This document shows positions 1 to 52,531 of a stretch of DNA of 64,000 nucleotides, piece after piece. A program made the translations under genes and the position numbers. The DNA comes from Escherichia coli. Lineage in GTDB: Bacteria > Pseudomonadota > Gammaproteobacteria > Enterobacterales > Enterobacteriaceae. A model generated the notes under the pieces. The model was not told the origin of the DNA. It did no database searches and was given only the letters and a program-made list of their open reading frames with translations. Every line of letters begins with the position of its first letter. Position 1 is the stretch's first letter. The DNA is taken from NCBI RefSeq assembly GCF_003334765.1, contig NZ_QOWT01000015.1; one strand, given 5' to 3'.

Positions 1-158
1 AGCAGGGGATTGACCGGATGGCCGGACGTCACTCCGCCGGGGCACACCGAACAGGCCACGCCGGTGGGGGCACCAATGCGCACCCCGGCTGAACCCTGAA
101 CAATGCTACCGCCATACTGCGTCATGTCGCCCTGACGCGCTGCCGGTTTTCCGCTCAT
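1..158 (-). CDS. rhsA: Rhs element core protein, N-terminal 52 codons only (gene continues beyond the window start)
   Basis: Minus-strand ATG at 156-158; translation MSGKPAARQGDMTQYGGSIVQGSAGVRIGAPTGVACSVCPGG is the conserved Rhs N-terminus; position next to yibF as in K-12. Confidence 0.7.
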   Translation of the reverse strand, partial: MSGKPAARQGDMTQYGGSIVQGSAGVRIGAPTGVACSVCPGGVTSGHPVNPL

Positions 159-385
159 TTCTCATCCTTGTTTTATCGGGTTATTTGTCTGCTGACAGGC
201 GAAACCCTACAGATTTATAAGAAAGCCTGAAGTGAGATATCCATCAGAGTGAAATAATTAGGAAAATATTTATATCACCATGATAAATATGTGATTTATT
301 TGGAAGTAACAAACCATCAACATTTTCTGCCCTTTTTCCCATCACCAGGCCATACTGATATTTTTCCTCGCACAAAGGACTCGGC

Positions 386-994
386 ATGAAACTCGTCGGT
401 AGCTACACCAGCCCGTTTGTACGCAAACTTTCTATTCTGTTGTTAGAAAAGGGCATAACTTTCGAATTTATTAATGAACTGCCCTATAACGCGGACAACG
501 GCGTGGCGCAATTTAACCCGTTAGGAAAAGTGCCGGTGCTGGTGACCGAAGAGGGCGAATGCTGGTTTGATTCGCCGATCATCGCTGAATATATTGAATT
601 AATGAATGTCGCTCCGGCGATGTTGCCGCGCGATCCGCTGGAGTCGTTGCGGGTGCGCAAAATTGAGGCACTGGCGGATGGCATTATGGATGCCGGGCTG
701 GTATCGGTGCGTGAACAGGCGCGTCCAGCGGCGCAGCAGTCTGAAGATGAATTGTTACGCCAGCGGGAGAAAATCAACCGCAGTCTGGATGTGCTGGAAG
801 GATATCTGGTCGATGGCACACTCAAAACCGATACGGTCAATCTGGCGACTATCGCCATTGCCTGTGCCGTCGGATATCTCAATTTCCGCCGCGTTGCGCC
901 AGGTTGGTGTGTCGACCGCCCACACTTAGTCAAACTGGTCGAAAACCTGTTTAGCCGCGAAAGTTTTGCTCGCACCGAACCGCCAAAGGCTTGA
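386..994 (+). CDS. yibF: Glutathione S-transferase-like protein YibF
   Basis: 202-aa ORF, GST fold-like N-terminus ([14 protein letters not shown]...); synteny upstream of selA. Confidence 0.9.
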
Positions 995-1091
995 TGCGCG
1001 ATATGTCCTCCTGACCCATCTCACGTTACAATCCGTGGTTATGTTAAACGCCCTTCTCCGTGTGAGAGGGCCTTGATCAGCCAGGTTTCCT

Positions 1092-2483
1092 ATGACAACC
1101 GAAACGCGTTCCCTCTATAGTCAACTTCCGGCTATTGATCGCTTATTGCGCGATAGCTCCTTCCTTTCTTTGCGTGATACTTATGGTCACACCCGCGTGG
1201 TGGAATTGTTGCGTCAGATGCTCGACGAAGCGCGAGAAGTGATTCGTGGCAGCCAGACGCTGCCTGCGTGGTGTGAAAACTGGGCGCAAGAAGTCGATGC
1301 CCGGTTGACGAAAGAAGCGCAGAGCGCGCTGCGTCCGGTGATCAACCTGACGGGAACCGTGCTGCATACCAACCTTGGGCGAGCTTTACAGGCGGAAGCC
1401 GCGGTGGAAGCCGTTGCGCAGGCTATGCGTTCGCCAGTGACCCTCGAGTATGATCTGGACGACGCCGGACGCGGACATCGCGATCGGGCGCTGGCGCAGC
1501 TGCTGTGCCGTATTACGGGGGCGGAAGATGCCTGTATCGTCAATAACAATGCGGCGGCGGTGTTATTGATGTTGGCGGCCACTGCCAGCGGAAAAGAGGT
1601 GGTGGTATCTCGCGGCGAACTGGTGGAGATTGGCGGCGCGTTTCGTATTCCCGATGTTATGCGTCAGGCAGGCTGCACCCTACACGAAGTAGGGACCACC
1701 AACCGCACGCACGCGAATGATTATCGTCAGGCGGTGAATGAAAATACCGCACTGTTGATGAAAGTACATACCAGTAACTACAGCATTCAGGGGTTCACCA
1801 AAGCGATAGATGAAGCGGAACTGGTGGCGCTCGGCAAAGAGCTGGATGTTCCCGTAGTGACTGATTTAGGCAGTGGCTCGCTGGTCGATCTTAGCCAGTA
1901 CGGTTTGCCGAAAGAGCCAATGCCGCAGGAGTTGATTGCGGCGGGCGTCAGTCTGGTGAGTTTCTCCGGCGACAAGTTGTTAGGCGGGCCGCAGGCAGGA
2001 ATTATTGTTGGTAAAAAAGAGATGATCGCCCGCCTGCAAAGCCACCCGCTGAAGCGTGCATTACGCGCGGATAAAATGACCCTCGCGGCGCTGGAAGCCA
2101 CGTTGCGTCTTTATTTACACCCTGAAGCTCTGAGTGAAAAATTACCGACCCTGCGCCTGCTTACCCGCAGCGCAGAGGTCATTCAAATCCAGGCACAACG
2201 TTTACAGGCCCCCCTTGCCGCACATTACGGCGCGGAGTTTGCGGTACAGGTTATGCCATGTCTTTCGCAGATTGGCAGTGGTTCGCTGCCGGTTGATCGC
2301 CTGCCGAGCGCGGCATTAACGTTTACACCCCATGATGGACGCGGTAGCCACCTTGAGTCATTAGCCGCCCGCTGGCGTGAATTGCCAGTGCCGGTGATTG
2401 GTCGTATTTATGACGGACGATTGTGGCTGGATTTACGCTGCCTTGAAGATGAGCAACGGTTTTTGGAGATGTTGTTGAAATGA
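1092..2483 (+). CDS. selA: L-seryl-tRNA(Sec) selenium transferase
   Basis: 463-aa ORF; stop overlaps selB start (ATGA at 2480-2483). Confidence 0.93.
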
Positions 2484-4324
2484 TTATTGCGACTGCCGGA
2501 CACGTTGACCACGGCAAAACAACCTTATTGCAGGCGATTACTGGCGTAAATGCTGACCGTCTGCCGGAAGAAAAAAAGCGCGGCATGACCATCGATCTCG
2601 GCTATGCCTACTGGCCGCAGCCGGATGGTCGCGTGCCTGGTTTTATCGACGTTCCCGGTCATGAAAAGTTTCTTTCCAACATGCTGGCGGGCGTTGGTGG
2701 TATCGATCACGCGCTGTTGGTGGTGGCGTGCGATGACGGCGTGATGGCACAGACCCGTGAGCATCTGGCGATTTTGCAGCTGACCGGTAACCCGATGCTG
2801 ACAGTGGCGCTGACCAAAGCCGATCGCGTGGACGAAGCGCGTGTTGATGAGGTTGAACGCCAGGTAAAGGAGGTTCTGCGGGAATACGGTTTTGCTGAGG
2901 CAAAACTGTTTATCACCGCAGCAACCGAAGGTCGGGGAATGGATGCCCTGCGCGAGCATCTGCTTCAGTTGCCGGAACGCGAGCACGCCAGCCAACATAG
3001 TTTCCGCCTCGCGATTGACCGCGCATTTACCGTAAAAGGTGCCGGGCTGGTCGTCACCGGTACGGCGTTAAGCGGGGAAGTGAAGGTAGGCGATTCACTC
3101 TGGCTGACTGGTGTAAATAAACCGATGCGTGTACGTGCGCTGCATGCGCAAAACCAGCCAACAGAAACCGCCAATGCCGGGCAGCGTATCGCGCTTAACA
3201 TCGCGGGTGATGCGGAAAAAGAGCAGATTAACCGTGGCGACTGGCTGCTTGCCGATGTGCCGCCAGAGCCGTTCACACGGGTGATTGTCGAGCTTCAAAC
3301 CCATACACCGCTGACCCAGTGGCAGCCGCTGCATATTCACCACGCCGCCAGCCACGTCACGGGACGCGTTTCACTGCTGGAAGATAACCTTGCTGAACTG
3401 GTCTTCGACACCCCGTTATGGCTGGCAGATAACGACCGCCTGGTATTGCGCGATATCTCTGCCCGCAACACGCTGGCCGGAGCGCGCGTCGTGATGCTTA
3501 ACCCGCCGCGTCGCGGTAAACGTAAGCCGGAATATCTGCAATGGCTGGCGTCTCTTGCACGGGCGCAGAGCGATGCCGATGCGTTATCTGTTCATCTGGA
3601 ACGCGGCGCGGTTAACCTTGCGGATTTCGCCTGGGCGCGCCAGCTCAACGGCGAAGGGATGCGCGAATTGCTGCAACAGCCTGGTTATATTCAGGCTGGT
3701 TATAGCTTGTTGAATGCGCCGGTTGCCGCCCGCTGGCAGCGGAAAATTCTCGACACATTAGCGACTTATCATGAGCAACATCGCGATGAACCTGGCCCTG
3801 GGCGCGAACGTCTGCGACGTATGGCGTTGCCAATGGAAGATGAAGCGCTGGTACTGTTGCTGATTGAAAAGATGCGCGAAAGCGGCGACATCCACAGCCA
3901 TCACGGCTGGCTGCATCTGCCAGATCACAAAGCGGGCTTCAGCGAAGAGCAGCAGGCCATCTGGCAAAAAGCAGAGCCACTGTTTGGTGACGAACCGTGG
4001 TGGGTGCGTGACCTGGCAAAAGAGACGGGAACCGACGAGCAGGCAATGCGCCTGACTCTACGCCAGGCGGCGCAGCAAGGAATAATTACCGCGATCGTTA
4101 AAGATCGTTATTACCGTAACGATCGGATTGTCGAGTTTGCCAATATGATCCGCGATCTCGATCAGGAGTGTGGTTCAACCTGCGCGGCGGATTTCCGCGA
4201 TCGCTTAGGCGTAGGCCGAAAGCTGGCAATTCAGATTCTGGAATATTTTGACCGCATTGGCTTTACGCGTCGTCGTGGAAATGATCATTTATTGCGCGAC
4301 GCATTATTATTTCCGGAAAAATAA
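2480..4324 (+). CDS. selB: Selenocysteine-specific translation elongation factor
   Basis: 614-aa ORF; N-terminal GTP-binding motif [11 protein letters not shown]; translationally coupled to selA. Confidence 0.93.
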
Positions 4325-8241: not shown

Positions 8242-9378
8242 ATGGATTTACTGATTATTTTGACCTATGTGGCTTTTGCATGGGCAATGTTTAAGATCTT
8301 CAAAATTCCCGTAAATAAATGGACCATTCCCACAGCGGCCCTGGGTGGAATATTTATTGTCAGCGGTCTAATTCTGTTAATGAACTATAACCATCCGTAT
8401 ACCTTTAAAGCGCAAAAAGCGGTTATTTCTATTCCTGTTGTCCCACAGGTGACTGGTGTGGTGATTGAAGTGACGGATAAGAAAAATACGCTGATTAAAA
8501 AAGGTGAGGTGCTATTTCGACTGGACCCGACGCGTTATCAGGCGCGGGTGGATCGGCTGATGGCGGATATCGTTACCGCAGAACATAAACAGCGGGCGTT
8601 GGGCGCAGAGTTAGATGAGATGGCGGCGAATACTCAGCAGGCAAAGGCCACGCGGGATAAATTCGCTAAAGAGTATCAGCGTTACGCACGTGGCAGCCAG
8701 GCGAAAGTAAACCCGTTTTCAGAACGCGATATCGATGTGGCGCGGCAAAATTATCTGGCGCAGGAAGCCTCCGTGAAGTCATCGGCGGCGGAACAAAAAC
8801 AGATCCAGAGCCAGCTGGATAGCCTGGTGTTGGGTGAACATTCTCAAATCGCCAGCCTGAAAGCACAGCTCGCGGAAGCAAAATATAACCTTGAGCAGAC
8901 GATAGTGCGTGCGCCGAGCGATGGTTATGTGACCCAGGTACTGATTCGTCCGGGTACCTATGCCGCGTCGCTGCCGCTACGTCCGGTGATGGTGTTTATA
9001 CCCGATCAGAAACGACAAATCGTGGCGCAGTTCCGTCAGAACTCCTTGCTGCGACTGGCTCCTGGCGACGATGCGGAAGTGGTGTTTAATGCTCTGCCAG
9101 GTAAGGTATTCAGCGGTAAGCTGGCAGCCATTAGTCCAGCCGTTCCCGGCGGAGCTTATCAGTCGACCGGCACCTTACAGACGTTAAACACAGCGCCGGG
9201 TTCAGATGGCGTTATCGCGACCATTGAACTGGATGAGCACACTGATTTGAGCGCTTTACCAGACGGTATTTACGCCCAGGTGGCGGTTTACTCTGATCAT
9301 TTCAGCCATGTCTCGGTGATGCGCAAAGTGCTATTACGCATGACCAGCTGGGTGCATTACCTTTATCTCGATCATTAA
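8242..9378 (+). CDS. yiaV: HlyD-family membrane fusion protein YiaV
   Basis: 378-aa ORF with N-terminal TM segment and coiled-coil region. Confidence 0.88.
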
Positions 9379-10349
9379 TCTTCGCTTTCCGCCGCTTGTT
9401 CAGGCCGCAGTTGCTGCGACTGAGCAAGCTGGTGGCGAATTTCACGCAGCATTTCATCCAGCACATACTGGACCCGCCAGGGCTGGTATTCCCGTTTACG
9501 GAAGATAGCCACCAGATCCAGCCACCATTCATAGGGTTGCTGAAAGCAGGGCACCAGCGTGCCGTCTTGCAGGTCGCTCTGCACACTTTTGTCTGGCGCA
9601 AACACAATCCCCAGGTGATTTCGTGCCAGCTCCAGCGCAGATTGCGTGTTGTCGCAAACGTAATTTCCCTTCACGCGATAATCCCGCACCTCTTTACTCC
9701 CGGCGACGTTGAAGCGCCAGATATTCGCGTCGTCGATCATCATCGAGTCGATCAAAATACAGGAGTGATGTTCGAGTTCGTCAGGACGGCTAATGGGATG
9801 TTTCTCAAGATAGCGCTGGCTGGCATAAGCGGTTACGGCATATTGGGTAATAAAACTGGCAACCAGCGATTCATCTTTTGGTGGAGCGTAGCTGATTAAA
9901 ACATCACAATCATCAGGAAATTCGACGCCTTCATAAAAGGCATTACGCTCAAGATTGCAGGTTTTTAGCGATAAGGTGATATCACCGATATCTTTAATTT
10001 TATCGATTACATGTTTGGATAAATAGGTAATTATGCCGGTTGGGGCGTAGATGGTGACCCGACCACGTTTCTCATGCTTATAATCTGCAATAAAATTATT
10101 AAGTTGCTCGTTTCTGTCCAGCATGTCGTTGATGTACGGTAACAGCGCGGTGCCAAAAGGTGTGAGCATCAGCTGCCGGGTGGTTCGGTCAAAGACTTTT
10201 AAACCCACTTTTGATTCAAAATCAGCAAGATATTTGCTGACGTTGGCCTGTGCGATGCCAAGTACAGTCGCGGCATGGCTGATATTTTCACTGGCAGCGA
10301 TTACCGAGATAATTTTTAACTCCCGGTACTTAAGTTGTAATTTTGTCAT
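9375..10349 (-). CDS. yiaU: LysR-family transcriptional regulator
   Basis: 324-aa ORF; N-terminal LysR HTH ([18 protein letters not shown]); convergent with yiaV, 4-bp overlap. Confidence 0.9.
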
Positions 10350-11213: not shown

Positions 11214-11559
11214 TTCACCGGTGGATGTCGGTGCGGCTGGTGCTCCGTCGTAATGCCACAAAGGTTGTTGCTCTGGATTGCTCTGTTCATACCGGGAACC
11301 TGGCGTCTGAATCAGGATCTTATGGCTGAACAATCCCTTGCCTTCAAATGTCGTAAATGGCGCATCGGCGGGCAGCAACAGGTTATGCAGTGACTCGACG
11401 TTGTCGGCCTGCTCCATGCAATACGGTTTAATGACGTTGGCTATTTCCGGCAGATTTTTCAGAAACATACTGGTTTAACGCCAGCAGCGTGGAAGCGGCG
11501 TTACAGCAAGGAACATATCAATTCGTAGTGCCGGGGCGATGAAGCCCCGGCGTGAGGGA

Positions 11560-12255
11560 TTACTGCCCGTAATAGGCATTGGCCCCATGCTTACGCAGGT
11601 AGTGCTTATCCAGCAGTTCGTTTTGCATCGCAGGGAGCTGCGGCGCAAGCTGGCGCGAGAATAGACCCATATAGGCGCATTCTTCGAGTACTACGGCGTT
11701 ATGCACGGCATCGGCGGCGTTTTTACCCCATGCGAACGGGCCGTGAGAATGCACCAGCACCGCCGGGATTTGTGCCGGACTCCTGCCACGTTCTTCGAAG
11801 GTTTCAATGATCACTTCGCCGGTCTGATATTCATATTCGCCGTTAATCTCCTCTGCGGTCATCTGTCGCGTGCAGGGGATGGCACCGTAAAAATAATCGG
11901 CGTGGGTGGTGCCCCAGGCGGGGAGATCCAGCCCGGCCTGTGACCAGATGGTGGCGTGGCGCGAGTGGGTATGCACAATACCGCCAATTTCGGCATAGCG
12001 ACGGTAGAGCGCCAGATGCGTTGGTGTATCGGAAGAGGGTTTTTTGCTGCCTTCCACCACCTTACCGCTGGCTATCTCAACCACCACCATATCGTCGGCG
12101 GTCATCACGTCGTACTCGACGCCGGAAGGTTTGATTACCATCCATTGCCGCGTTTCGTCTACCGCGCTGACATTGCCCCAGGTGAACGTCACCAGATGGT
12201 GAGCGGGAAGCGCCAGATTCGCCGCCAGCACGTCGGCTTTCAGTTGCTCTAACAT
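11560..12255 (-). CDS. sgbE: L-ribulose-5-phosphate 4-epimerase
   Basis: 231-aa ORF, class II aldolase/AraD-like; last gene of the yiaK-S operon. Confidence 0.92.
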
Positions 12256-13109
12256 ATAAATCCAGCCTCCTGCATACGCGCTTCAATCCAACGCCGCGCC
12301 TGAATAATCTCCAGCACCGGCTCTTTGGCTTTTTCGGTCCACATCTCAATCAGGAAAGAACCGCGATAGTTCAGTTTATGCAGCGTTTTGAAGATGCCAA
12401 CGAAATCGACGCAGCCTTCGCCAAACGGCACGTCGCGGAACTGTCCGGGACTTTGCCCGGTGACTGGCTGGGTGTCTTTCAGGTGGATCGCGGCGATACG
12501 GTCAATGCCCAGTTTCAGTTCGGCGGGAACATCATTGCCCCAGGCGCTGAGGTTGCCGACGTCCGGGTAGACGGTGAACCACGGTGAGGCGAGCATCTCG
12601 TCCCATTTTTTCCATTTGCTGATGGAGTTCATAAACGCGGTATCCATAATCTCCACCGCCAGCATTACTTGTGATGCCGCCGCCTGTTCGACTGCCCACG
12701 CCAGCCCTTCAGCAAAACGTTGCCGGGTGCCTTCGTCGTGGTCTTCGTAATAGACGTCATAACCTGCCAGCTGGATGGTGCGAATGCCGAGATCGCGCGC
12801 CAGGCGAATCGCTTTACTCATGATTTCCCGCGCCCGTTCGCGCACTGCCTCGTCACGGCTACCAAAGGGAAAGCGACGATGTGCGGACAGGCACATCGAC
12901 GGGATCCCAACACCTGTTTCGATCATCGCGGCAACCAGCGAAGTCCTTTGTGCGGCGCTCCAGTCAAGACGTGAGAGCCGTTCGTCGGTTTCATCCACCG
13001 ACATTTCGACAAAATCAAAACCGCAGCTTTTTGCCAGCACCAGCCGCTCCGGCCAGGAGAGATCTTTCGCCAGCGCTTTTTCATAAATCCCTAACGGATG
13101 ATTACGCAC
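12249..13109 (-). CDS. sgbU: L-xylulose-5-phosphate 3-epimerase (probable GTG start)
   Basis: 286 codons from GTG at 13107-13109; UlaE-like sequence ([11 protein letters not shown]...); overlaps sgbH end and sgbE start. Confidence 0.85.
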
Positions 13110-13764
13110 GCGCACCTCCCCAGATAGCGTCGATTTGCGCATGGAAATCGCCAGCCACTTGCGCCGGATTTGCCGCGCCTGCCAGTGCCCGCCCGGCAAT
13201 AAACGCTTTCACGCGGATATCTTTAAACAGCGGCAGGTCAGCAGGGGTAATCCCGCCAGTAATGGAAAGCTCAAGGCCGATATCTGAAAGCGCCTTCATG
13301 CGTGCCAGATCGGCTTCGCCCCACTGTTGCCCGCTGGCCTGTGCATCACGACCGCGATGATAAATGGCCTGCCGCACGCCAATACGATGCCAGTCGCGGG
13401 CGTCGTCCAGCGTCCAGTTACCGAACAGCTCTATCTGAATTTCACCCCCGCAGCGTTGTGCCATTGCGTGGCCTTTTTCTACCGTCGCGAGCGGCGCGGC
13501 GCAGATGATGGTCATCCAGTTAGCGCCTGCGCCAAACGCCTGTTGCGCGAGCGTTTCACCAGCGTCGGCGACCTTCCAGTCAGCAACGATGATTTTGTCC
13601 GGGCACTGTTCGCGCAAGGCTTTCACCGCGCCAAGCCCTTCGTTTAAACAGAGAATGGTGCCCGCTTCGACGATATCGACGCTGTCTTTTAACAGCGTCA
13701 CGTCGCGCTGCGCGGCTTCAAGTGATGAGTGGTCGAGGGCCAGTTGCAGAAGTGGTCGGCTCAT
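13102..13764 (-). CDS. sgbH: 3-keto-L-gulonate-6-phosphate decarboxylase
   Basis: 220-aa ORF; AAGGAG RBS upstream of ATG at 13762-13764. Confidence 0.92.
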
Positions 13765-15256
13765 AATGTGTGCTCCTTAATGCGGGCGTGAAAGCCCTGA
13801 AGTGCGGCAATGAGATGCTGATAACGTTGATATTTTTTTGGTAAAGCTGATGGGCGGTCATATCTGGCAGCAGGGTGCGCACCGGGTGTCGCAAGTCACG
13901 TTGGGCTTCGCTGAAGTTGTGATAAACCCCGGTGCCGACGCGGGCGGCAAGGGCCGCACCAAAGCAGCCGGTTTCTTCCACCTGCGGCAGCTCGATACGC
14001 AGACCGCTGACGTCCGCCAGCATTTGCATCCAGACATCGGAGTGCGCCGGGCCGCCAGTGACGCGTAGGGTGTGAACATCAGTAAAACGTTCGCGCATTC
14101 GGTTGAGGTGGGTCATATGGCTGAACACCACCCCTTCATAGATGGCCTGCAACAGGTGCGCGCGGGTGTGAATGGCCTGCATCCCGTAGAAACCACTGGT
14201 CATCTCGAGTCCGGCGTTGCTGCCGTACAGGAACGGCAGGAAAAAGAGATCGCCCCCAGCCTTCGGCAAGCTGGCAACGGCCTGATTGATCTCATCAAAC
14301 GAGATTTCTCCCCACTGTGCGGTAAACCATTCGAGGTTGCCGGAAGAGGTAGGGCTGGCTTCGTGAACGATAAATTCACCATCGTTAACGTAGCGACCAT
14401 AGACATACGGATGCGCTTCACCGTCACGTAAACCGCGGGTTATGCCGCTGGTCACCGCCCAGGTCCCCATCACCGCATTGAGGGTAAATTCGTCTTCGAT
14501 CCCGGCGCAGAGTGCGGTGGAAACCACATCAAACAGGCCGCCAACAACGGGCGTACCCGCTTTCAGACCGGTCAGGGCGGCTGTCTGAGCGGTGATCTCC
14601 CCGCAGATTTCGGCAGATCCGACAACAGGCGGCAGGGCGTGATTGATTTCAGCGATCCCCAGCCAGTCGGTGAGGCACGGGTCATATTCCCCAAGACTCA
14701 TGTTGTAGAGGTTGGACTCGGAAATATTGCTCTCTTCACAGCCTTTGACGCCAGTTAAACACCAGCGCAGGTAGTCGTGCGTCATCATCACGCAGCCAAT
14801 TTGCGCGTAGCGTTCTGGTTCGTGCTCTTTCAGCCAGCGTAACAGCGACACCGGATGCCCGGTCCACAAGGTTTGTCGGGTCAGCGGGTAGAGTTTTTCC
14901 GGGATGCCATCTTCCTGCCAGCGACGAACGATTTCCATCGCCCGGCGGTCCGAGGACAAAATAGCATTCCCGAGCGGTTTGTCGTTTTTATCCAGCAAAA
15001 ACAAGCCCTTTCCCTGTGCGGAGATGCCGATACCGACAATTTGTTCCCCGCTAACACCAGAATGAGTAAGCAGGGCGCGAATGACAGCCATGCAGCATTG
15101 CCACAGTTCTGCCATATCGCGCTCTGCCCAGCCTGGCTGCGGGCTTAATGCGCACAGCGGCAGGCGCTGCACGCCTGCCTCCCGGCCTTCGCGGTCATAC
15201 AGCCCGGCTTTCAGCCAGCTACCGCCACAATCTAACCCCAGCCAGTATTGCGTCAT
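13718..15256 (-). CDS. lyxK: L-xylulose kinase, apparently frameshifted at the C-terminus (canonical stop would be at 13761-13763)
   Basis: FGGY-kinase N-terminus (GLDCGGSWLK); ORF is 512 aa rather than 498; tail after LYQK is low-complexity read-through into sgbH; an alternative frame gives a clean ...[25 protein letters not shown] stop. Confidence 0.85.
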   Translation of the reverse strand: MTQYWLGLDCGGSWLKAGLYDREGREAGVQRLPLCALSPQPGWAERDMAELWQCCMAVIRALLTHSGVSGEQIVGIGISAQGKGLFLLDKNDKPLGNAILSSDRRAMEIVRRWQEDGIPEKLYPLTRQTLWTGHPVSLLRWLKEHEPERYAQIGCVMMTHDYLRWCLTGVKGCEESNISESNLYNMSLGEYDPCLTDWLGIAEINHALPPVVGSAEICGEITAQTAALTGLKAGTPVVGGLFDVVSTALCAGIEDEFTLNAVMGTWAVTSGITRGLRDGEAHPYVYGRYVNDGEFIVHEASPTSSGNLEWFTAQWGEISFDEINQAVASLPKAGGDLFFLPFLYGSNAGLEMTSGFYGMQAIHTRAHLLQAIYEGVVFSHMTHLNRMRERFTDVHTLRVTGGPAHSDVWMQMLADVSGLRIELPQVEETGCFGAALAARVGTGVYHNFSEAQRDLRHPVRTLLPDMTAHQLYQKNINVISISLPHFRAFTPALRSTHYEPTTSATGPRPLIT

Positions 15257-15259
15257 GGT

Positions 15260-16246
15260 TTATTGCACCTCATCCACGGCTTTCAGCAGATCAGCTCCCT
15301 GCGGCACATCTTTAACAAACATGTCGCGAACCTGATTCCCCAGTGCGTCGCTAAAGGCTTTGCGGTCGAGATCGGTGATGACTTCCACGCCCGCTTCTTT
15401 CATGCCGTCGATGATTTTTTGCTGATCTTCAGCAACCAGTTTGCGCTGATAGTTACCCGCTTCTTGTGCAGATGAAACTAGCGCCTGCTGGAACTCCGGA
15501 CTTAAGCCATCAAACTTCGCTTTGTTGATCACCACCAGAAGCGGGGAATAGGCGTGGTGCGTCAGAGAAAGGAACTTCTGCACTTCGAAAAATTTTGCTG
15601 ACCAGACGACGTTGATCGGGTGTTCCTGAGCGTCGATAGTGCGGGTTTCCAGCCCGGTATAGACTTCGGCAAACGGCATCGGGATCGGGTTAGCGCCAAA
15701 GACTTTGAATGCGGCGATATTCATCGGGCTATTGTTGGTGCGGATTTTCAGCCCTTTCAGGTCGGCGGGGGTTTTAACCGGTGCGCGCGAGTTGGTGACA
15801 TCGCGCCAGCCGTTTTCCCAGTAGGCCAGTACTTTCAGTCCTTTACCTTCAAGTGAGGCTTTCAGATCATCACCGACTTTGCCGTCGAGCGTTTTATGCG
15901 CGTGAGCGGTATCGCGGAACAGGAAAGGGACATCAAGCAAGTTCATCACTGGTGATAACCCGGCAAAGTTATTCGAGCCGGACATTTCCATATCGATGGT
16001 GCCGCCACGTACGCCGCTGATCATCGCCTGCGCGTTACCGAGAGTGCTGTCCGGGAACAGTTTTAATTTCAGCTCGCCTTTGGTTCTCTCCTGCAATAAA
16101 TCATTGAATTTTTTCGCCGCAATATGTTGCGAGTCGGTTTGTGATGTTTCATAACCGAAACGTAAAGATTGTGCCGCCAGAGAAGATGTGCTGAATGCAG
16201 CCAGGCCAGCAATGAATAATGCGTAGGTTACAGAGCGTAATTTCAT
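15260..16246 (-). CDS. yiaO: TRAP transporter periplasmic binding protein (2,3-diketo-L-gulonate)
   Basis: 328-aa ORF with signal peptide; DctP family. Confidence 0.9.
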   Translation of the reverse strand: MKLRSVTYALFIAGLAAFSTSSLAAQSLRFGYETSQTDSQHIAAKKFNDLLQERTKGELKLKLFPDSTLGNAQAMISGVRGGTIDMEMSGSNNFAGLSPVMNLLDVPFLFRDTAHAHKTLDGKVGDDLKASLEGKGLKVLAYWENGWRDVTNSRAPVKTPADLKGLKIRTNNSPMNIAAFKVFGANPIPMPFAEVYTGLETRTIDAQEHPINVVWSAKFFEVQKFLSLTHHAYSPLLVVINKAKFDGLSPEFQQALVSSAQEAGNYQRKLVAEDQQKIIDGMKEAGVEVITDLDRKAFSDALGNQVRDMFVKDVPQGADLLKAVDEVQ

Positions 16247-16258
16247 AATATTTTCCTT

Positions 16259-17536
16259 TTAATTAATCCATTTCAAAGGGAGGATGATGAGATCGGGAAT
16301 AAAAACAAATACGACTAATAATGAATATAAAACCAGGACGTAAGGGAAAACGCCTCTGACTGCATCATCGAATTTGAGTTTTGCCACCCCTGAAATAACG
16401 TTAAGTACATTACCGATAGGCGGTGTAATTAAGCCGATTGAGCAGTTAATGATAAACATGACACCGAAATAAATCGGATCGATTCCTGCCTCTTTAACTA
16501 AAGGCATTAATACCGGGGTAAGAATTAATACCGTCGGCGTTAAATCCATGACCATGCCGACAATCAGGATAGCCACCATAATGACGATAAACAGCAGACG
16601 CGGTGAATCGACCAACGGTTGCAGTAAATCAGAAACCATCATCGGCAGTTCAGCAATGGTAATCAGCCAGGCGGAAACTTGTGCCGAGGCCACCAGAAAC
16701 ATAACCACTGAGGTGGTTTTCGCCGCGCCAATGAGTACATGCCAAAGTGTGGCGAAGGTCATTTCACGGTAAATAACTGTGGCGACAAACAGCGCATAGA
16801 AAGCAGCAACGGCCCCGGCTTCGGTAGGGGTAAACAGACCGGAGCGAAACCCGCCAATAATGATGACTGGAAGAAACAGCGCCCAGATACCGGAGACAAA
16901 AGAGTGCCAGATTTCCTGCATCGTTGCTTTTTGCTGGCGGGGTAAATTAAGGCGACTGGCCTGCCACCACCAGGTAAGCATCAGTGTTGCGCCCATCATC
17001 ATGCCAGGGGCAATGCCCGCCATAAACAGCTTACTGATGGATAATCCGCTGGAAACGCCGAAGATAATAAACGGAATGGAAGGGGGAATAATTGGCGCGA
17101 TAATGCCGCCAGAGGCAATCAGCCCCGCCGCCCGGTTGACCGGATAGTTGGCGCTGCGCATCATCGGCACCAGTAGAGCGGCAACGGCGGCGGTATCCGC
17201 AACGGCAGAACCAGAAAGGCTCGCCATAATCATAGCTGCCAGCACGCCGACGTAGCCCAGCCCGCCTGGTTTATGCCCCACCAGTTTCATCGGCAGGTCA
17301 ACAATGCGTTTTGACAAGCCGCCCGCATTCATGATTTCACCCGCCAGCACAAAGAACGGAATCGCCAGCAGGGAGAAGCTATCGGCTCCGTTCACCAGCG
17401 TTTGTGCCATGATCTGGACATCAAACATGTCCAGCCAGAACATTAACGCCGCCCCGCACAACAACAGTGCCCAGGCAATAGGCAAACCGATAGCAATACC
17501 ACCCAACAGACAGCCCAGAAAAATCAGCACAGCCAT
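16259..17536 (-). CDS. yiaN: TRAP transporter large permease subunit
   Basis: 425-aa polytopic membrane ORF, DctM-like. Confidence 0.9.
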   Translation of the reverse strand: MAVLIFLGCLLGGIAIGLPIAWALLLCGAALMFWLDMFDVQIMAQTLVNGADSFSLLAIPFFVLAGEIMNAGGLSKRIVDLPMKLVGHKPGGLGYVGVLAAMIMASLSGSAVADTAAVAALLVPMMRSANYPVNRAAGLIASGGIIAPIIPPSIPFIIFGVSSGLSISKLFMAGIAPGMMMGATLMLTWWWQASRLNLPRQQKATMQEIWHSFVSGIWALFLPVIIIGGFRSGLFTPTEAGAVAAFYALFVATVIYREMTFATLWHVLIGAAKTTSVVMFLVASAQVSAWLITIAELPMMVSDLLQPLVDSPRLLFIVIMVAILIVGMVMDLTPTVLILTPVLMPLVKEAGIDPIYFGVMFIINCSIGLITPPIGNVLNVISGVAKLKFDDAVRGVFPYVLVLYSLLVVFVFIPDLIILPLKWIN

Positions 17537-17538
17537 GA

Positions 17539-18012
17539 TTAAGCTCCTTGCGGTGGCGACGTTAGAGAATTGCTACGCGTGATGAGTTGATATAAATGAC
17601 GCAGTTCAAAGAATGCGATAACGAGGCTGGTGGGCAGACAAGCGGCATACATCAGGCCGATGGGTAAACCGAGGATCGGTGAATAATCGCTCCAGTCCTG
17701 AATTGTTTTTAGCGTTGCGCCCCAGGCCAGTGCGCCACAAATAAATAAGATTAAGGAATGGGTAACCAGAGCGACTCGTCGCTGCCATGCGGGGGAGAGT
17801 TTCTCCACCAGAAAGGTGACCTGAACGTGGGCGTTATCCATAAAAGCTACAATCGCGCCAATAAACGTTAACCAGACAAATAAATAACGTGACAATTCAT
17901 CAACAGATAAAATGCTTGTCTGAAAACCATATCTTAAAATAATGTTTATAAATACAATACAGGAAAGTACGGCGAGATTAATCGCCAGTATTGCTTCGAG
18001 TATTTTTTTCAT
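17539..18012 (-). CDS. yiaM: TRAP transporter small permease subunit
   Basis: 157-aa membrane ORF, DctQ-like; 2 bp from yiaN. Confidence 0.9.
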
Positions 18013-18129
18013 AGCTATTCCTTGAGGCTATGTCTGTCATAATTCAAGTCGCATGTGCAGCAACCTGAATTATTAATATAGTTAGAGCAATAACATTACC
18101 CAGGCGTTCTGGCGTAGACGATTATTCGA

Positions 18130-18600
<471 letters not shown>

Positions 18601-18608
18601 TTATCTCC

Positions 18609-19607
18609 TCATAACGCCTGGATTTTGGCCCACACGCTGTCATCAACAGTGATGCCGTTACGGCGGTTTTCGGCCAGCAGGGTAGTAAATTCATGGCCGG
18701 GTAAGCGAATGGCCTGATTTTCGTCAGCACGCTCGGCACTAGTAACGTAATCCATGATGCGTTGCAGCTTGGCATCGCGGGTGGGACCGTCGATAAGCTT
18801 GTCCACTTCAATGGCAATAAAAATTTGTGAAATGCCATATTCGTCGCTGTTGTCCTGGGTGACTTCGGCAACGGATGCGCCGTCGGAAAGGAGAGTAGCG
18901 ATCATATCCAGCACAATCGACATGCCAGAACCTTTCCAGTAGCCCATCGGCAAAATGCGGCGATTCTTCTCGATAACGCCAGGTTCTTTGGTCAAATTGC
19001 CCTCATCATCAAAGCCACCATCGACCGGGAGCTGACGACCTGCCAGACGGTTAACTTCTAACATGCCGTAAGAGAACATCGACATCGACATATCGACCAT
19101 GGTGATCGGCGTGGAAGGAATGGCGACGATCAGCGGGTTAGTGCCGATGCGACACTCTTTTGCGCCCCACGGCGGCATTACGGCGATGGAGTTGGTCCAG
19201 CAAATGCCAATATAGCCTTTTTCCGCCGCCTGCCAGCCGTAGCTGCCGCCGCGCATCCAGTGGTTGGCATTACGTAGTGCCACCAGACCAATACCGTGAT
19301 CGGCAGCCAGTTCAATGGCGCGATCCATCATCTTTTTCGCTGTCAGGTTACCGATCGAACGCTGGGCGTCCCACTGTTCAATTGCGCCGAGGCTGGTTAT
19401 ACGTTTGGGTTGGGCATCAGGAATGATATCGCCGTTTTCCAGTTGTTGAATGAAACGAGGGAAACGATTAACGCCGTGAGAATAAACGCCGGATTCGGTG
19501 GTGCGGGCGAACATCTCTGCACAGGCGTCAGCCGTTTCGCTGTCAACGCCGCGTGAAATTAAGACCCGATTAAAGGCTGCTTTTAACTGCTCAAATGTCA
19601 CTTTCAT
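18609..19607 (-). CDS. yiaK: 2,3-diketo-L-gulonate reductase
   Basis: 332-aa ORF; first gene of the operon, divergent from yiaJ. Confidence 0.9.
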
Positions 19608-19807: not shown

Positions 19808-20656
19808 ATGGGGAAAGAAGTGATGGGAAAAAAAGAGAACGAGATGGCGCAGGAAAAAGAGCGTCCAGCCGGAAGCCAGAGTCTGTTTCGCGGGTTGATG
19901 CTGATTGAGATTTTGAGCAACTATCCAAACGGTTGTCCGTTGGCGCATCTTTCGGAGCTGGCTGGTTTAAATAAGAGTACCGTCCATCGCTTATTGCAGG
20001 GATTACAGTCCTGCGGCTATGTGACCACCGCGCCTGCCGCAGGGAGTTATCGCCTGACCACCAAATTTATTGCCGTCGGGCAGAAGGCGCTGTCTTCGCT
20101 GAATATCATTCATATCGCCGCTCCGCATCTTGAGGCACTGAACATCGCCACTGGTGAAACCATTAACTTCTCCAGCCGCGAAGACGATCACGCTATTTTG
20201 ATTTATAAGCTGGAACCCACAACCGGGATGCTGCGAACCCGTGCCTATATTGGCCAGCATATGCCGCTCTACTGTTCCGCAATGGGCAAGATCTACATGG
20301 CGTTTGGTCACCCGGACTACGTGAAGTCATACTGGGAAAGCCATCAGCATGAGATCCAGCCGTTAACCCGCAATACCATTACCGAGCTGCCCGCGATGTT
20401 CGACGAACTGGCGCACATTCGTGAAAGCGGAGCGGCGATGGACAGAGAAGAAAACGAACTCGGCGTCTCCTGTATTGCTGTTCCGGTGTTTGATATTCAT
20501 GGGCGGGTGCCGTACGCCGTGTCGATTTCGCTTTCGACATCACGTCTGAAACAGGTGGGAGAGAAAAATCTCCTGAAACCACTGCGTGAAACCGCGCAGG
20601 CTATTTCTAATGAACTGGGATTTACTGTCAGGGATGACCTGGGCGCGATCACATAA
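19808..20656 (+). CDS. yiaJ: IclR-family transcriptional repressor of the yiaK-S operon
   Basis: 282-aa ORF; N-terminal HTH and IclR effector domain; divergent from yiaK across a 200-bp AT-rich spacer. Confidence 0.9.
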   Translation: MGKEVMGKKENEMAQEKERPAGSQSLFRGLMLIEILSNYPNGCPLAHLSELAGLNKSTVHRLLQGLQSCGYVTTAPAAGSYRLTTKFIAVGQKALSSLNIIHIAAPHLEALNIATGETINFSSREDDHAILIYKLEPTTGMLRTRAYIGQHMPLYCSAMGKIYMAFGHPDYVKSYWESHQHEIQPLTRNTITELPAMFDELAHIRESGAAMDREENELGVSCIAVPVFDIHGRVPYAVSISLSTSRLKQVGEKNLLKPLRETAQAISNELGFTVRDDLGAIT

Positions 20657-20757
20657 CGCTTTGGACAAGTGCCAAAACTTTAACATTTCCTTCGTTGGAT
20701 CAAAGCAGTAGGGACGCGCTCTCTGGCACTCTGCTGTTTTAGTGCAAAGGAGTGATC

Positions 20758-21231
20758 ATGAACCGGTTTATTATTGCGGATGCGACGAAATGTATCGGTT
20801 GCCGTACCTGTGAAGTGGCTTGCGCAGTGTCGCATCATGAGAATCAGGATTGCGCTGCGTTGTCACCAGACGAGTTTATTTCCCGTATTCGTGTCATTAA
20901 AGACCACTGCTGGACCACGGCAGTAGCCTGTCATCAGTGTGAAGATGCACCGTGCGCGAATGTCTGCCCTGTTGACGCGATAAGCCGCGAACATGGGCAT
21001 ATTTTCGTTGAACAAACACGTTGCATTGGCTGTAAAAGCTGTATGCTGGCTTGCCCGTTTGGTGCGATGGAGGTCGTTTCTTCGCGCAAAAAGGCGAGGG
21101 CGATTAAGTGCGATCTGTGCTGGCATCGGGAGACGGGACCGGCCTGTGTTGAAGCCTGCCCGACAAAGGCGTTGCAGTGCATGGATGTCGAGAAAGTGCA
21201 GCGGCATCGGCTACGGCAGCAGCCTGTTTGA
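20758..21231 (+). CDS. ysaA: 4Fe-4S ferredoxin-type protein
   Basis: 157-aa ORF with several CxxCxxCxxxCP cluster motifs. Confidence 0.88.
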   Translation: MNRFIIADATKCIGCRTCEVACAVSHHENQDCAALSPDEFISRIRVIKDHCWTTAVACHQCEDAPCANVCPVDAISREHGHIFVEQTRCIGCKSCMLACPFGAMEVVSSRKKARAIKCDLCWHRETGPACVEACPTKALQCMDVEKVQRHRLRQQPV

Positions 21232-21278
21232 AACGTTTTCCGGCGTTTCTCAACGCCGGAACAGTGCGCTTTGTTTAT

Positions 21279-21376
21279 GCCAGATGCGGCGTAAACGCCT
21301 TATCCGGCCTACAAATTCTTCCAAATTCAATATATTGCAGAAATCATGTAGGCCTGATAAGCGTAGCGCATCAGGC
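21279..21376. repeat. REP/BIME element
   Basis: gccagatgcggcgtaaacgccttatccggcctac ... gtaggcctgataagcgtagcgcatcaggc in the ysaA/avtA convergent spacer. Confidence 0.8.
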
Positions 21377-21381
21377 AATTT

Positions 21382-22635
21382 TTAGTGACTTTCAGCCCAG
21401 GCTCTTTCTATCTCTTCCGCCAGAATCTTCACCCCCGCCTCAATTTTCTCCGGCTCTGGTACGTAGTTCATGCGCATACATTGATGCGTATGCGGCCACG
21501 GTTTATCCAGCCCTGGGAAGAAGTTGTGCCCCGGCACCATCAGCACGCCGCGTGCTTTCAGGCGCTGATAGAGCTGCTCGGTCGTAATGGGCAAATCCTT
21601 AAACCATAGCCAGAGGAAAATGGCTCCTTCCGGTTTATGAATCAGGCAGCGATTTTCCGGTAAATAGCGGCGAATGATGGCGATAGTTTCCTGAACACGC
21701 TGGTAGTAAAACGGTTTGATGACTGTTTCAGACAGGCGCAGCAGATCGTTACGCTTAATCATTTCACACATCATCGCCGGACCAATACCGCCAGGTGCCA
21801 GGCTGATAATGCCGTTCATATTGGTGATGGCGGTGATGATTTTTTCATTGGCGATGATAATGCCGCAGCGGGAGCCAGGTAGACCCAGCTTGGAAAGACT
21901 CATGCACAGCACGATATTCGGATTCCATAGCGGGCGCGCTTCACTGAAGATGATACCCGGGAACGGGACGCCATAAGCGTTATCAATCACCAGCGGAATG
22001 CCGTGTTGATTCGCCAGCGCGTCAAGCTTCAGCAACTCTTCGTCAGTAATCACATTGCCTGTTGGATTCGTCGGCCGGGAGACGCAAATCATCCCGGTTT
22101 CTTCGCCAATATGCAGATGCTCAAAATCGACGTGGTATTTAAACTGGCCTTCCGGCAGCAGTTCAATATTCGGACGCGCAGAGACAAACAGATCTTCTTC
22201 CAGTCCGGCGTCAGCATAGCCAATGTATTCCGGTGCAAGCGGGAACAGCACTTTTTTGACCCGACCATCGGCACGGCGTCCGGCAAACAGGTTAAATAAG
22301 TAGAAAAACGCGCTCTGGCTGCCGTTTGTTAGTGCAATATTCTGTGGTTCGATATCCCAACCCAACTTCTCGCGCAGCATTCCGGCAAGCAGTGTGAGTA
22401 GCTCCGTTTTCCCCTGTGGACCGTCGTAGTTACACAGTGCATCAGTCGCTTTGCCACTTTCCAGCATGTCGGTCAGTAGCGTCTGGAAGTAGTCCTGCAT
22501 TTCCGGGATCTGCGCCGGATTACCGCCGCCGAGCATAATCGCGCCAGGCGTGCGTAAACCGTCGTTCAGATCTTCCATCAACAGCGTAATGCCGGAGTGG
22601 CGGGTAAATTTGTCACCAAAAAGGGAGAATGTCAT
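21382..22635 (-). CDS. avtA: Valine-pyruvate aminotransferase
   Basis: 417-aa ORF from MTFSLFGDKF; PLP aminotransferase class I/II. Confidence 0.9.
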   Translation of the reverse strand: MTFSLFGDKFTRHSGITLLMEDLNDGLRTPGAIMLGGGNPAQIPEMQDYFQTLLTDMLESGKATDALCNYDGPQGKTELLTLLAGMLREKLGWDIEPQNIALTNGSQSAFFYLFNLFAGRRADGRVKKVLFPLAPEYIGYADAGLEEDLFVSARPNIELLPEGQFKYHVDFEHLHIGEETGMICVSRPTNPTGNVITDEELLKLDALANQHGIPLVIDNAYGVPFPGIIFSEARPLWNPNIVLCMSLSKLGLPGSRCGIIIANEKIITAITNMNGIISLAPGGIGPAMMCEMIKRNDLLRLSETVIKPFYYQRVQETIAIIRRYLPENRCLIHKPEGAIFLWLWFKDLPITTEQLYQRLKARGVLMVPGHNFFPGLDKPWPHTHQCMRMNYVPEPEKIEAGVKILAEEIERAWAESH

Positions 22636-40055: not shown

Positions 40056-40288
40056 ATCGCTAAATAATACAGCAACCTTTAATAATCTTCTGCTGAATAA
40101 AGATTATCTCATATATTAATTTTATGAGATTTTTTTAGGATTATATCAAGGAGAAGAAACAAACTTATTAAGCTAGAATAGCCACGGGTGCTTGAGACTG
40201 TTTGTCTCAGGTATTCACCGAAAGGCAGACAGAGAAAAGCCCCACCTGACTATAAATCAAAGTTGGAAATCAACACAGGAGGCTGGGA

Positions 40289-40441
40289 ATGCCGCAGAAA
40301 TATAGATTACTTTCTTTAATAGTGATTTGTTTCACGCTTTTATTTTTCACCTGGATGATAAGAGATTCACTGTGTGAATTGCATATTAAACAGGAGAGTT
40401 ATGAGCTGGCGGCGTTTTTAGCCTGCAAATTGAAAGAGTAA
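40289..40441 (+). CDS. hokA: Hok-family type I toxin (50 aa)
   Basis: Below the ORF-track cutoff; AGGAGG RBS at 40276-40281; translation MPQKYRLLSLIVICFTLLFFTWMIRDSLCELHIKQESYELAAFLACKLKE is a Hok/Gef peptide with one TM helix. Confidence 0.85.
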   Translation: MPQKYRLLSLIVICFTLLFFTWMIRDSLCELHIKQESYELAAFLACKLKE

Positions 40442-40572
40442 GAGTCTTCGGCGGGAAATTATTCCCGCCTTACTTACGGCGTTGCGCATTCTCATTGCAC
40501 CCAAATTTATTCTTCACAAAAATAATAATAGATTTTATTACGCGATCGATTATTTATTTCCTGAAAACAAAT

Positions 40573-40601
40573 AAAAAAATCCCCGCCAAATGGCAGGGAT
40601 C
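40573..40601 (-). terminator. Rho-independent terminator of cspA
   Basis: On the minus strand: ccctgcc attt ggcgggg followed by attttttt, just 3' of the cspA stop. Confidence 0.65.
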
Positions 40602-40627
40602 TTAGATTCTGTGCTTTTAAGCAGAGA

Positions 40628-40840
40628 TTACAGGCTGGTTACGTTACCAGCTGCCGGGCCTTTAGCGCCGCTTTCGATGGTGAAGGACACTTTCTGACCT
40701 TCGTCCAGAGATTTGTAACCATCGTTCTGGATAGCAGAGAAGTGTACGAACACATCTTTAGAGCCATCGTCAGGAGTGATGAAGCCGAAGCCTTTGTCAG
40801 CGTTGAACCATTTTACGATACCAGTCATTTTACCGGACAT
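40628..40840 (-). CDS. cspA: Major cold-shock protein CspA
   Basis: 70-aa [24 protein letters not shown]... with RNP motifs. Confidence 0.97.
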
Positions 40841-41060
40841 AGTGTATTACCTTTAATAATTAAGTGTGCCTTTCGGCGATATGGCGTGCTTTACAGATTT
40901 TGAAGCGTTAAAGGAATGTGCACTACGAGGGGTATCAACGATAACTCTTGAAGGGACTTGCCTTACTACACTGCTTTAATGGTCTGTACGTCAAACCGTT
41001 GATGTGCATTAAGCCACGCATTGGCGGGTGATGCAACAATTATTTTTCATATTTATGATT
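40841..41060 (-). promoter_or_regulatory. cspA long 5' UTR and promoter with UP element
   Basis: On the minus strand: -35 TTGCAT (41031-41036), 17-bp spacer, -10 CTTAAT (41008-41013), AT-rich UP element upstream; leaves a ~160-nt leader. Confidence 0.75.
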
Positions 41061-52196: not shown

Positions 52197-52362
<166 letters not shown>

Positions 52363-52422
52363 GCGAAGCGAGAGAACGTTGCGCCAGCAACGGCCCGCAG
52401 GGCGAGCCACGAAGTGGCGAGT

Positions 52423-52530: not shown

Positions 52531-52531
52531 C

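Follow-up and report, generated by a model that had tools for sequence, protein, structure and literature searches.

Is the lyxK gene in this stretch of Escherichia coli DNA a kinase gene with an altered end, a decaying gene, or an intact gene that only appears broken through a sequencing error? In K-12, LyxK is the L-xylulose/3-keto-L-gulonate kinase of the yiaKLMNO-lyxK-sgbHUE operon (UniProt P37677), which is repressed by YiaJ (PMC6958661). In the window (the whole stretch of 64,000 nucleotides that was analysed), the orthologue of P37677 is found in its expected place between yiaO and sgbH. The nine remaining genes of the cluster are all present, intact, and in the K-12 order. The features of the locus are as follows.

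lyxK, frameshifted allele: 13718..15256, minus strand; an open reading frame of 512 codons, from the ORF list, blastn against K-12 lyxK, and PGAP labels on identical sequence.
Homopolymer A7 on the coding strand (T7 on the plus strand): 13833..13839, minus strand; the site of a 1-nt deletion, from the sequence, alignments, and population counts.
Out-of-frame tail: 13721..13834, minus strand; 38 codons by translation, then the TGA stop at 13720-13718.
Leftover native C-terminal coding sequence: 13761..13832, minus strand; 23 residues plus TGA, nucleotide-identical to K-12.
sgbH: 13102..13764, minus strand; intact and 100% the same as K-12 sgbH, with its first 47 nt overlapped by the extended lyxK frame.
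Shine-Dalgarno sequence of sgbH: 13773..13778, minus strand; AAGGAG, seen in the sequence 8 nt upstream of the ATG.
sgbU: 12249-13109, minus strand; downstream epimerase gene, intact against the K-12 coding sequences.
sgbE: 11560-12255, minus strand; downstream epimerase gene, intact against the K-12 coding sequences.
yiaK, yiaL, yiaM, yiaN, and yiaO: 15260..19607, minus strand; the upstream genes for a reductase, YiaL, and a TRAP transporter, intact, with proteins identical to those of K-12.
yiaJ/plaR: 19808..20656, plus strand; divergent gene for an IclR-type regulator, intact and the same as in K-12.

The window lyxK differs from K-12 lyxK by a single base. The blastn alignment has 0 mismatches and 1 gap across 1497 nt. 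In the window the coding strand has c-aaaaaaa-t, its seven A's lying at 13839..13833, while K-12 MG1655 has A8 at this run and is otherwise the same over the surrounding 200 nt. Codons 1-474 of LyxK are the same as in K-12 (b3580, yiaP), and codons 475-512 are out of frame. As a result of the lesion, the 498-aa kinase is lengthened to 512 aa, of which the last 38 are an out-of-frame tail, and translation stops at 13720-13718 instead of at the native TGA at 13763-13761. In K-12 the native TGA forms an ATGA overlap with the sgbH start codon, which is at 13764-13762 in the window; here lyxK instead ends 47 nt inside sgbH. Thus, relative to intact orthologues, an indel whose length is not a multiple of three alters both the frame and the stop, as in a frameshift pseudogene. 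What remains of the native 3' end can be read only if the mRNA gains an A or the frame shifts by -1.

These results bear on a first-pass annotation that was made from the letters of the sequence. It had proposed that a base missing from a homopolymer gives LyxK a different C-terminus and abolishes the lyxK-sgbH ATGA overlap, and both proposals hold: in the alignment with K-12 lyxK, the missing A is the only gap. The 498-aa C-terminus that it rebuilt matches the end of K-12 LyxK exactly, including the last 28 residues. Its tail of about 36 residues is indeed out of frame, but is 38 residues long (codons 475-512, 13834..13721), and its 44-bp extension into sgbH is correct when the stop codon is left out and becomes 47 nt when it is included. 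The single-base deletion is demonstrated by comparison with orthologues; chance is not an apt test for a run of 7 nt.

Homopolymers are where indel errors classically fall, and the first-pass annotation had left undecided whether the gene is really altered or the base was lost in sequencing or assembly, the true gene being an intact A8 allele. When the run with its 40-nt flanks is searched exactly in 5,426 complete RefSeq E. coli genomes, the A7 87-mer is found in 61 genomes, the A8 form in 1,349, and the A9 form in 1. The 61 genomes come from many laboratories, hosts, and continents. At least 1,000 public contigs encode the exact 512-aa protein, for which both NCBI and UniRef give the name L-xylulokinase. 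Eight A7 genomes were inspected (FORC 064, ML35, PCN061, O157:H16 98-3133, MIN9, 50EVAW, CPF6, and H3), and in all eight PGAP labels lyxK as frameshifted. In the fetched A7 RefSeq genomes these pseudogenes are 100% identical to the window over 501 nt around the run, with no difference at the site, and the same 1496-nt feature is annotated in eight of eight.

The closest relatives of the window point in the same direction. Its four nearest genomes are all A7, and compared with its closest relatives the window has private SNPs only at 6647 and 16985. Two of these nearest genomes, CPF6 and H3, were fetched and carry the window's derived SNP at 18837. The sub-lineage with this SNP is uniformly A7, and the A7 genomes nearest to the window are not interrupted in the ranking by any A8 genome. 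Nevertheless, near-identical haplotypes with A8 do exist and encode the intact protein WP_000196054.1; across 23 kb, those of CP8-3_Sichuan, VG48B2, and LR-33 are 3 SNPs away from the window, roughly the distance of most A7 haplotypes, which would be compatible with an error. Also in its favor, the sole A9 record (ES2) looks error-prone, with a second 1-nt length difference nearby. Against an error, A9 is that single record while A7 recurs across complete genomes, and A7 is absent from the best 30 records, mostly K-12 laboratory strains, for a query combining the K-12 haplotype with A7. Given its presence in complete genomes, on the public contigs, and throughout a sub-lineage, A7 is most likely a real allele rather than an assembly artefact, and an error in the window is very unlikely. 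Of the two options in the first-pass annotation, the evidence thus favors the altered or decaying gene. That annotation had also treated other A7 genomes with a 512-aa product as counter-evidence to its proposal. Such genomes exist, but they speak against a sequencing error only; the frameshift itself is unaffected, since PGAP labels those copies as frameshifted pseudogenes.

At the run other E. coli alleles read CAACAAAAA, and A8 is the derived state. Alleles that are not of the K-12 type have AACAAAAA at the site of 13833..13839, and in the alignment the diverged E. coli alleles sampled (n=4) read CAACAAAAATAC. In the K-12-type allele a C-to-A change, from CAA CAA AAA to CAA AAA AAA (Gln475Lys), merged A2 and A5 into a run of A8. 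Replication slippage would then have deleted one A, converting A8 to A7. The A7 form is found on at least three local haplotypes that are also known with A8, so that the four-gamete test fails: the common haplotype, the haplotype with 18336-A (MIN9 and 50EVAW compared with MRE162 and 19-5), and the HS/H2-type mosaic (PCN061 compared with H2). No shared derived SNP unites all A7 genomes in the 23-kb local haplotype, which is star-like. Therefore, either slippage has recurred or A7 has been spread by short recombination patches.

What does the frameshift do to the enzyme? Pfam recognizes FGGY_N at residues 4-250 (E = 6e-96) and FGGY_C at residues 259-440 (E = 8e-21) of K-12 LyxK, and in the window both domains are untouched by the lesion. 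The rewritten part lies beyond them. AlphaFold2, run on the intact protein with 131 sequences (mean pLDDT 96), models residues 466-497 as one helix. From the FGGY-kinase fold in general, this terminal helix is expected to pack against the body of the enzyme. The 512-aa product keeps the first nine residues of the helix (466-474), while 23 of its 32 residues are rewritten and 14 residues are added. A model of the 512-aa product itself, from a 12-sequence alignment, has a mean pLDDT of 38; it is meaningless and was set aside. The lost segment is nearly invariant in the aligned orthologues of Citrobacter, Salmonella, and Klebsiella. In 123 homologues of at most 47% identity, K/R475 is kept in 81%, Y/F476 in 96%, and Y/F479 in 94%, and L486 and W490 are also kept. 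Within the family the replaced segment belongs to the better conserved parts, a pattern that extends from E. coli to homologues of 30% identity. Solved FGGY kinases align to about residue 495, and the matches of the curated NCBIfam kinase profiles, which extend to residues 483-486 of the intact protein, end at 474-477 in the window product. Since the sequence is out of frame from residue 475 onward, the helix pattern of the complete fold (K/R-Y/F-x-x-Y/F ... L ... W) is missing from the window product.

Because the conserved C-terminal helix is largely rewritten, kinase activity is likely lost or severely reduced. If the kinase is inactive or badly destabilized, catabolism of 2,3-diketo-L-gulonate and of L-lyxose/L-xylulose would be blocked at the kinase step. 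Some residual activity is conceivable, as FGGY_N and FGGY_C are untouched. It might go further, the 512-aa protein being a working kinase whose new C-terminus is tolerated or selected, so that A7 would be a variant and not a pseudogene. The two intact catalytic domains and the remaining helix residues 466-474 would allow this, and the A7 allele has spread over hosts and continents with no further disabling lyxK mutations found in the A7 copies, which thus give no positive signature of relaxed selection yet. However, such spread without extra lesions would also be expected if the operon is rarely used and the loss is neutral and young. Moreover, the replaced segment is well conserved and confidently modelled as a helix, and the new tail is merely the +1 frame of the native sequence and the sgbH start, with no comparable extension among the other aligned LyxK proteins. 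A working 512-aa kinase is therefore very unlikely.

A different way to rescue the gene is to bypass the frameshift. Full-length LyxK might still leak through at a low level, by an extra A added in transcription or by -1 slippage on A-AAA-AAU. This site is a weak slippery heptamer. Slippage by -1 can suppress single-base deletions at a few per cent, about 4% in one reporter (PMC10861913). The longer an A/T run in E. coli, up to 9 nt, the more insertions arise in transcription, with an exponential increase (PMC5574713). The strongest form of this idea is that the A8/A7 tract is a reversible phase-variation switch, or that A7 is expressed by programmed transcriptional or ribosomal slippage, and the failure of the four-gamete test by three or more A7 haplotypes with A8 counterparts might seem to favor a switch. 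Yet short-patch recombination accounts for that failure equally well, and the listed assemblies of K-12 laboratory strains show no switching. The run is also short: in many of the genomes analysed in PMC1088944, slippery runs are visibly selected against from about 9 nt. In programmed frameshifting the arrangement is conserved across orthologues; here it is not, the other E. coli alleles sampled and those of Citrobacter, Salmonella, and Klebsiella being in a single frame. Nor is there a downstream RNA structure to stimulate slippage: around the run and the sgbH start no significant structure is found, a 141-nt segment folding no better than shuffled sequences (z = +1.0). A true switch or programmed slippage is accordingly extremely improbable. 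Hardly more probable is a looser version, in which A7 is not dead in K-12-type E. coli but yields a low level of authentic LyxK by slippage and, with A8/A7 flips of at least three independent origins, acts as a slow reversible switch. If it were true, the kinase step of yiaK-S would be under slow, reversible genetic control.

The same lack of RNA structure concerns sgbH. A strong polar effect on sgbH was considered and dropped, as no RNA structure ties sgbH to upstream translation. Because it has its own strong, unstructured ribosome-binding site, sgbH would probably lose only the share of its translation that comes from termination-reinitiation, and the effect of the lost overlap is probably mild. 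The A9 allele would not fuse LyxK to SgbH, since its frame is closed by a TAA that lies five codons upstream of the sgbH start.

The lyxK run resembles several known systems in part. In Haemophilus, Neisseria, and Campylobacter, contingency genes are toggled by homopolymer indels that change the reading frame. As in those genes, the A7 and A8 states of lyxK coexist in the species on related haplotypes. Unlike them, the tract is only 7-8 nt long, frequent switching within clones is not seen (in the K-12 assemblies listed), and while contingency genes act at the surface or in modification, lyxK encodes a cytoplasmic catabolic enzyme and has its tract near the 3' end of the gene. Baranov et al. 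(2005, PMC1088944) describe frameshifted genes that are rescued when transcription slips at runs of poly(A). The lyxK frameshift likewise sits exactly in an A run, and one A added to the mRNA would restore the wild-type message. The runs in those genes are of 9, sometimes 8, while that of lyxK is of 7. Another example is found in Salmonella, where pseudogenes form at A/T homopolymers of at least 8 nt, the 'AT 8+mer' loci (PMC8538453). Like these loci, lyxK is a metabolic gene that was mutated at an internal A/T run of 8. The lyxK pseudogene of S. Gallinarum listed in the table of that study is different from E. coli A7, its lesion being a 1-bp substitution in another species.

Taken with its likely loss of activity, the window lyxK is very probably a naturally occurring, vertically inherited frameshift allele. 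The locus is dispensable, since it is missing from 573 of the 5,426 genomes and ETEC4075 has an annotated lyxK frameshift of independent origin. The literature searched on lyxK frameshifts and pseudogenes yielded no published description of the E. coli A7 allele or of kinase activity of the 512-aa protein. As a variant common to dozens of public genomes and annotated there as a pseudogene, lyxK A7 is an already known, ordinary pseudogene allele that reflects the decay of a dispensable sugar-use gene and involves no new mechanism. Gene callers nevertheless give a full-length 512-aa 'L-xylulokinase' for it. In annotation and metabolic modelling, A7 strains should be scored as without, or nearly without, L-xylulose/3-keto-L-gulonate kinase. 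lyxK is also a small example of how one substitution (Gln475Lys) may create an 8-nt homopolymer that later becomes the site at which the gene breaks.

The lyxK gene of the window lacks one base of an A run near its 3' end. The features concerned, taken from the ORF list except for the run and the Shine-Dalgarno sequence, are:

13718..15256, minus strand: lyxK ORF, 512 codons
13839..13833, minus strand: run of seven A's on the coding strand (A7), seen in the sequence
13778-13773, minus strand: AAGGAG Shine-Dalgarno sequence of sgbH, 8 nt 5' of its ATG
13764-13762, minus strand: ATG of sgbH, which ends at 13102
13720-13718, minus strand: stop codon of the frameshifted lyxK, 47 nt within sgbH

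The coding strand reads ...CAG CTT TAC CAA AAA AAT ATC... at this site. K-12 MG1655 lyxK (b3580; 1497 nt, 498 aa) aligns identically around the run save for one base, having eight A's (A8), and blastn over the whole gene finds a single gap and no mismatch. From codon 475 onward the window's lyxK is read in the +1 frame. The 1-nt homopolymer frameshift proposed in the first-pass annotation is borne out by this comparison. The 498-aa C-terminus rebuilt there equals the K-12 LyxK ending exactly, and K-12 has the TGA overlapping the sgbH ATG that was said to be native and broken in the window. The out-of-frame tail is also real, with 38 unrelated residues rather than about 36, as is the extension into sgbH, which is 47 nt with the stop codon included rather than 44.

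The feature is real, was spotted and interpreted correctly, and is ordinary. The segment is the E. coli selA-aldB-yiaT-sgbE-sgbU-sgbH-lyxK-yiaONMLK-yiaJ-avtA-malS region, which many complete E. coli chromosomes match at ~100% identity over 25 kb, and the locus is K-12 lyxK with an allele that RefSeq labels a frameshifted pseudogene. The allele is already known in databases, and no discussion of it was found in the literature searched. The same mechanism, in which replication slips on an A/T run of 8, has been catalogued for the Salmonella 'AT 8+mer' loci, and the table of these loci includes lyxK among the S. Gallinarum pseudogenes (PMC8538453). A programmed frameshift was rejected because the arrangement is not conserved across the orthologues sampled, and the data gave no positive evidence for phase variation.

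That A7 is an error of sequencing or assembly in the window's own record is very improbable, and the first-pass reading of a real allele is preferred. Dozens of complete RefSeq genomes of unrelated origin match a 501-nt query at the site with 100% identity. Probes were given 40-nt flanks, so that one difference of any kind puts identity below 99%; of the complete RefSeq E. coli genomes, 61 contain the exact A7 87-mer, 1,349 the exact A8 88-mer and one a synthetic A9 89-mer. In a public protein collection, at least 1,000 contigs carry exactly this 512-aa protein, which NCBI and UniRef call L-xylulokinase. The alignment with other E. coli suggested earlier turned up such 512-aa A7 alleles; PGAP annotates lyxK as a 1496-nt 'frameshifted' pseudogene in FORC 064, ML35, PCN061, O157:H16 98-3133, MIN9, 50EVAW, CPF6 and H3, and A8 on near-identical haplotypes encodes the intact WP_000196054.1. 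A chimeric query joining the K-12-specific haplotype to A7 had no exact match, and its best 30 records, mostly K-12 laboratory strains, all had one extra base, so that A7 is no routine artefact of assembly here. The sole A9 record, ES2 (NZ_CM184352), spans 7502 nt in a 7.5-kb comparison where 7503 are expected, so that a second 1-nt deletion must exist nearby; this suggests homopolymer errors of assembly rather than a genuine A9 allele.

Over 12.5 kb, the closest complete genomes to the window are H3 (Mexico), EH09-18-41, BS74R-D and CPF6 (Thailand), whose hosts were humans and a pig; all four have the A7 length. CPF6 and H3, the two fetched, share a derived base at 18837 with the window and differ from it at 6647 and 16985 alone. 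At these two sites the window's base is found in neither CPF6 nor H3, nor in any other genome aligned there. Judged by score, the 18837 SNP is also in EH09-18-41 and BS74R-D, and in the 12.5-kb comparison no A8 genome fell in the score interval expected for an A8 copy with this marker. The deletion is therefore older than the sub-lineage and was inherited.

Four representatives of diverged lyxK alleles (L011-L014; 92-95.5% identity over the 87-88-nt probe) have TAC CAA CAA AAA TAC (Y-Q-Q-K-Y), a run of A2-C-A5, with CAACAAAAA in 4/4 opposite window 13833-13840. Every sampled record of the diverged classes is 88 nt long. By this comparison, the K-12-type A8 arose by a C-to-A change (Gln475Lys) joining two short runs. 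The substitution itself seems harmless, since enterobacterial orthologues have Q, K, R or H at residue 475, and the K-12 residue agrees with the family consensus, K or R standing here in 81% of distant FGGY homologues. Its side effect was the homopolymer, which afterwards came to be one base short. The K-12-type allele is present in ~1,410 genomes, the only ones in which a frameshift at this site is possible, and 61 of these (4.3%) have it.

Over 23.4 kb, A7 haplotypes form a star-like radiation from one common haplotype, and A8 strains from China, Switzerland and Ecuador have that haplotype without alteration; no derived SNP but the deletion itself unites all A7 genomes. The SNP at 18336 accompanies A7 in MIN9 and 50EVAW and A8 in MRE162 and 19-5, and its alternative base likewise occurs with both run lengths. 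PCN061 (A7) and H2 (A8) have strongly diverged flanks in common, from 1.9 kb and 4.3 kb off the run. The next 24 closest records to PCN061, HS included, all have one extra base, the A8 length, and among the records listed only PCN061 has A7 on this HS/H2-type background. Since A7 stands on three backgrounds also known with A8, the four-gamete test fails, and either slippage happened anew three times or more, or the allele moved by short recombination patches. An assembly error in the PCN061 record is possible, because its yiaN (8565-9842 of that locus, L004) has an internal stop and its yiaY (20436-21597) is frameshifted by a 10-nt insertion at window-equivalent 4714; these lesions reflect either wider decay in the strain or a lower-quality assembly. 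The 61:1 ratio of A7 to A9 and the fixation of A7 in the window's sub-lineage show that most A7 copies were inherited by descent.

In Pfam, FGGY_N spans 4-250 and FGGY_C 259-440, so the frameshift leaves the catalytic domains untouched. AlphaFold2 models intact LyxK (131 sequences; mean pLDDT 96, pTM 0.93) with a long terminal helix at 466-497 (pLDDT 98 at 461-480, 93 at 481-490). The model superposes full-length on solved FGGY kinases (TM 0.8-0.9), with sequence alignments to these extending to about residue 495. The C-terminal segment, YQxKYxxYQxLIxALQGxHARIKEH, is near-invariant in Citrobacter, Salmonella, Klebsiella and Pseudocitrobacter orthologues. Among 123 homologues of at most 47% identity (alignment occupancy at least 85% up to position 490), K/R475 is found in 81%, Y/F476 in 96%, Y/F479 in 94% and W490 in 66%, and L486 is kept. 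Matches to curated NCBIfam kinase profiles end at 483-486 in the intact protein and already at 474-477 in the window product. As 23 of the 32 residues of this conserved helix are rewritten, the 512-aa LyxK is predicted to have lost activity or to be severely destabilised. The literature search found no paper addressing its activity.

The native frame would be regained if one A were added to the mRNA or if tRNA-Lys slipped by -1 on A-AAA-AAU; the product would be wild-type or K475N LyxK. In E. coli, single-base insertions made during transcription fall mainly in A/T runs and become exponentially more frequent as the run lengthens, up to 9 nt (PMC5574713). In many bacterial genomes, a large proportion of those analysed, counterselection of slippery runs is evident at ~9 nt (PMC1088944), and single-base deletion mutants can be suppressed at a level of a few per cent (~4% in one reporter) via -1 slippage (PMC10861913). 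With seven bases and no stimulatory structure, rescue is probably slight.

The ATGA termination-reinitiation overlap with sgbH is gone in A7, and ribosomes in the extended lyxK frame would pass the sgbH start and terminate 47 nt past it. Only a modest change in SgbH synthesis is expected, because sgbH has its own consensus AAGGAG at optimal spacing and the RNA around its start is no more stably folded than shuffled sequence (z = +1.0). Two proteins from public assemblies outside the window, P0017 and P0019, are 718-aa LyxK-SgbH fusions. The fusion in P0017, the one aligned, would follow if 1 nt were inserted within the final few codons of a diverged (B1-like) lyxK; the P0017 cluster has 373 member sequences, Logan assemblies throughout. 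Such fusion is a second route to loss of the overlap.

Several other elements lie in the window. The K-12 pseudogene remnants ysaD and ysaC (an AraC-family and a hypothetical fragment; 11235-11528, between yiaT and sgbE) are in every related genome inspected. The 43-nt sRNA motif ES036 (CssrF) reaches the Rfam gathering score twice, at 21313-21355 (+) and 54850-54892 (-); one copy, between ysaA and avtA, adjoins the yia operon. Rfam/ARAGORN matches to the sok antitoxin and cspA thermoregulator (40186-41000), tRNA-Pro(CGG) followed by RtT RNA and naRNA4 (52197-52614) and the rdlD antitoxin (60688-60753) are typical of this chromosomal region.

The operon, repressed by YiaJ/PlaR, serves 2,3-diketo-L-gulonate/ascorbate-derived catabolism and that of L-lyxose/L-xylulose, with LyxK as the kinase step (PMC6958661). 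By comparison with K-12, yiaJ/plaR, yiaK, L, M, N, O, sgbH, sgbU and sgbE are intact in the window, their proteins identical except for one substitution in SgbU. This part of the operon is absent from 573 of the 5,426 complete genomes. ETEC4075 (NZ_CP122652; 316-1720 of its locus, L014) has a 'frameshifted' lyxK on a different diverged allele, the feature ~92 nt shorter, so that lyxK has decayed there independently, and in Shigella sonnei lineages the cluster has been lost entirely by deletion (PMC12795559). Together, these losses indicate that the operon is dispensable in nature.
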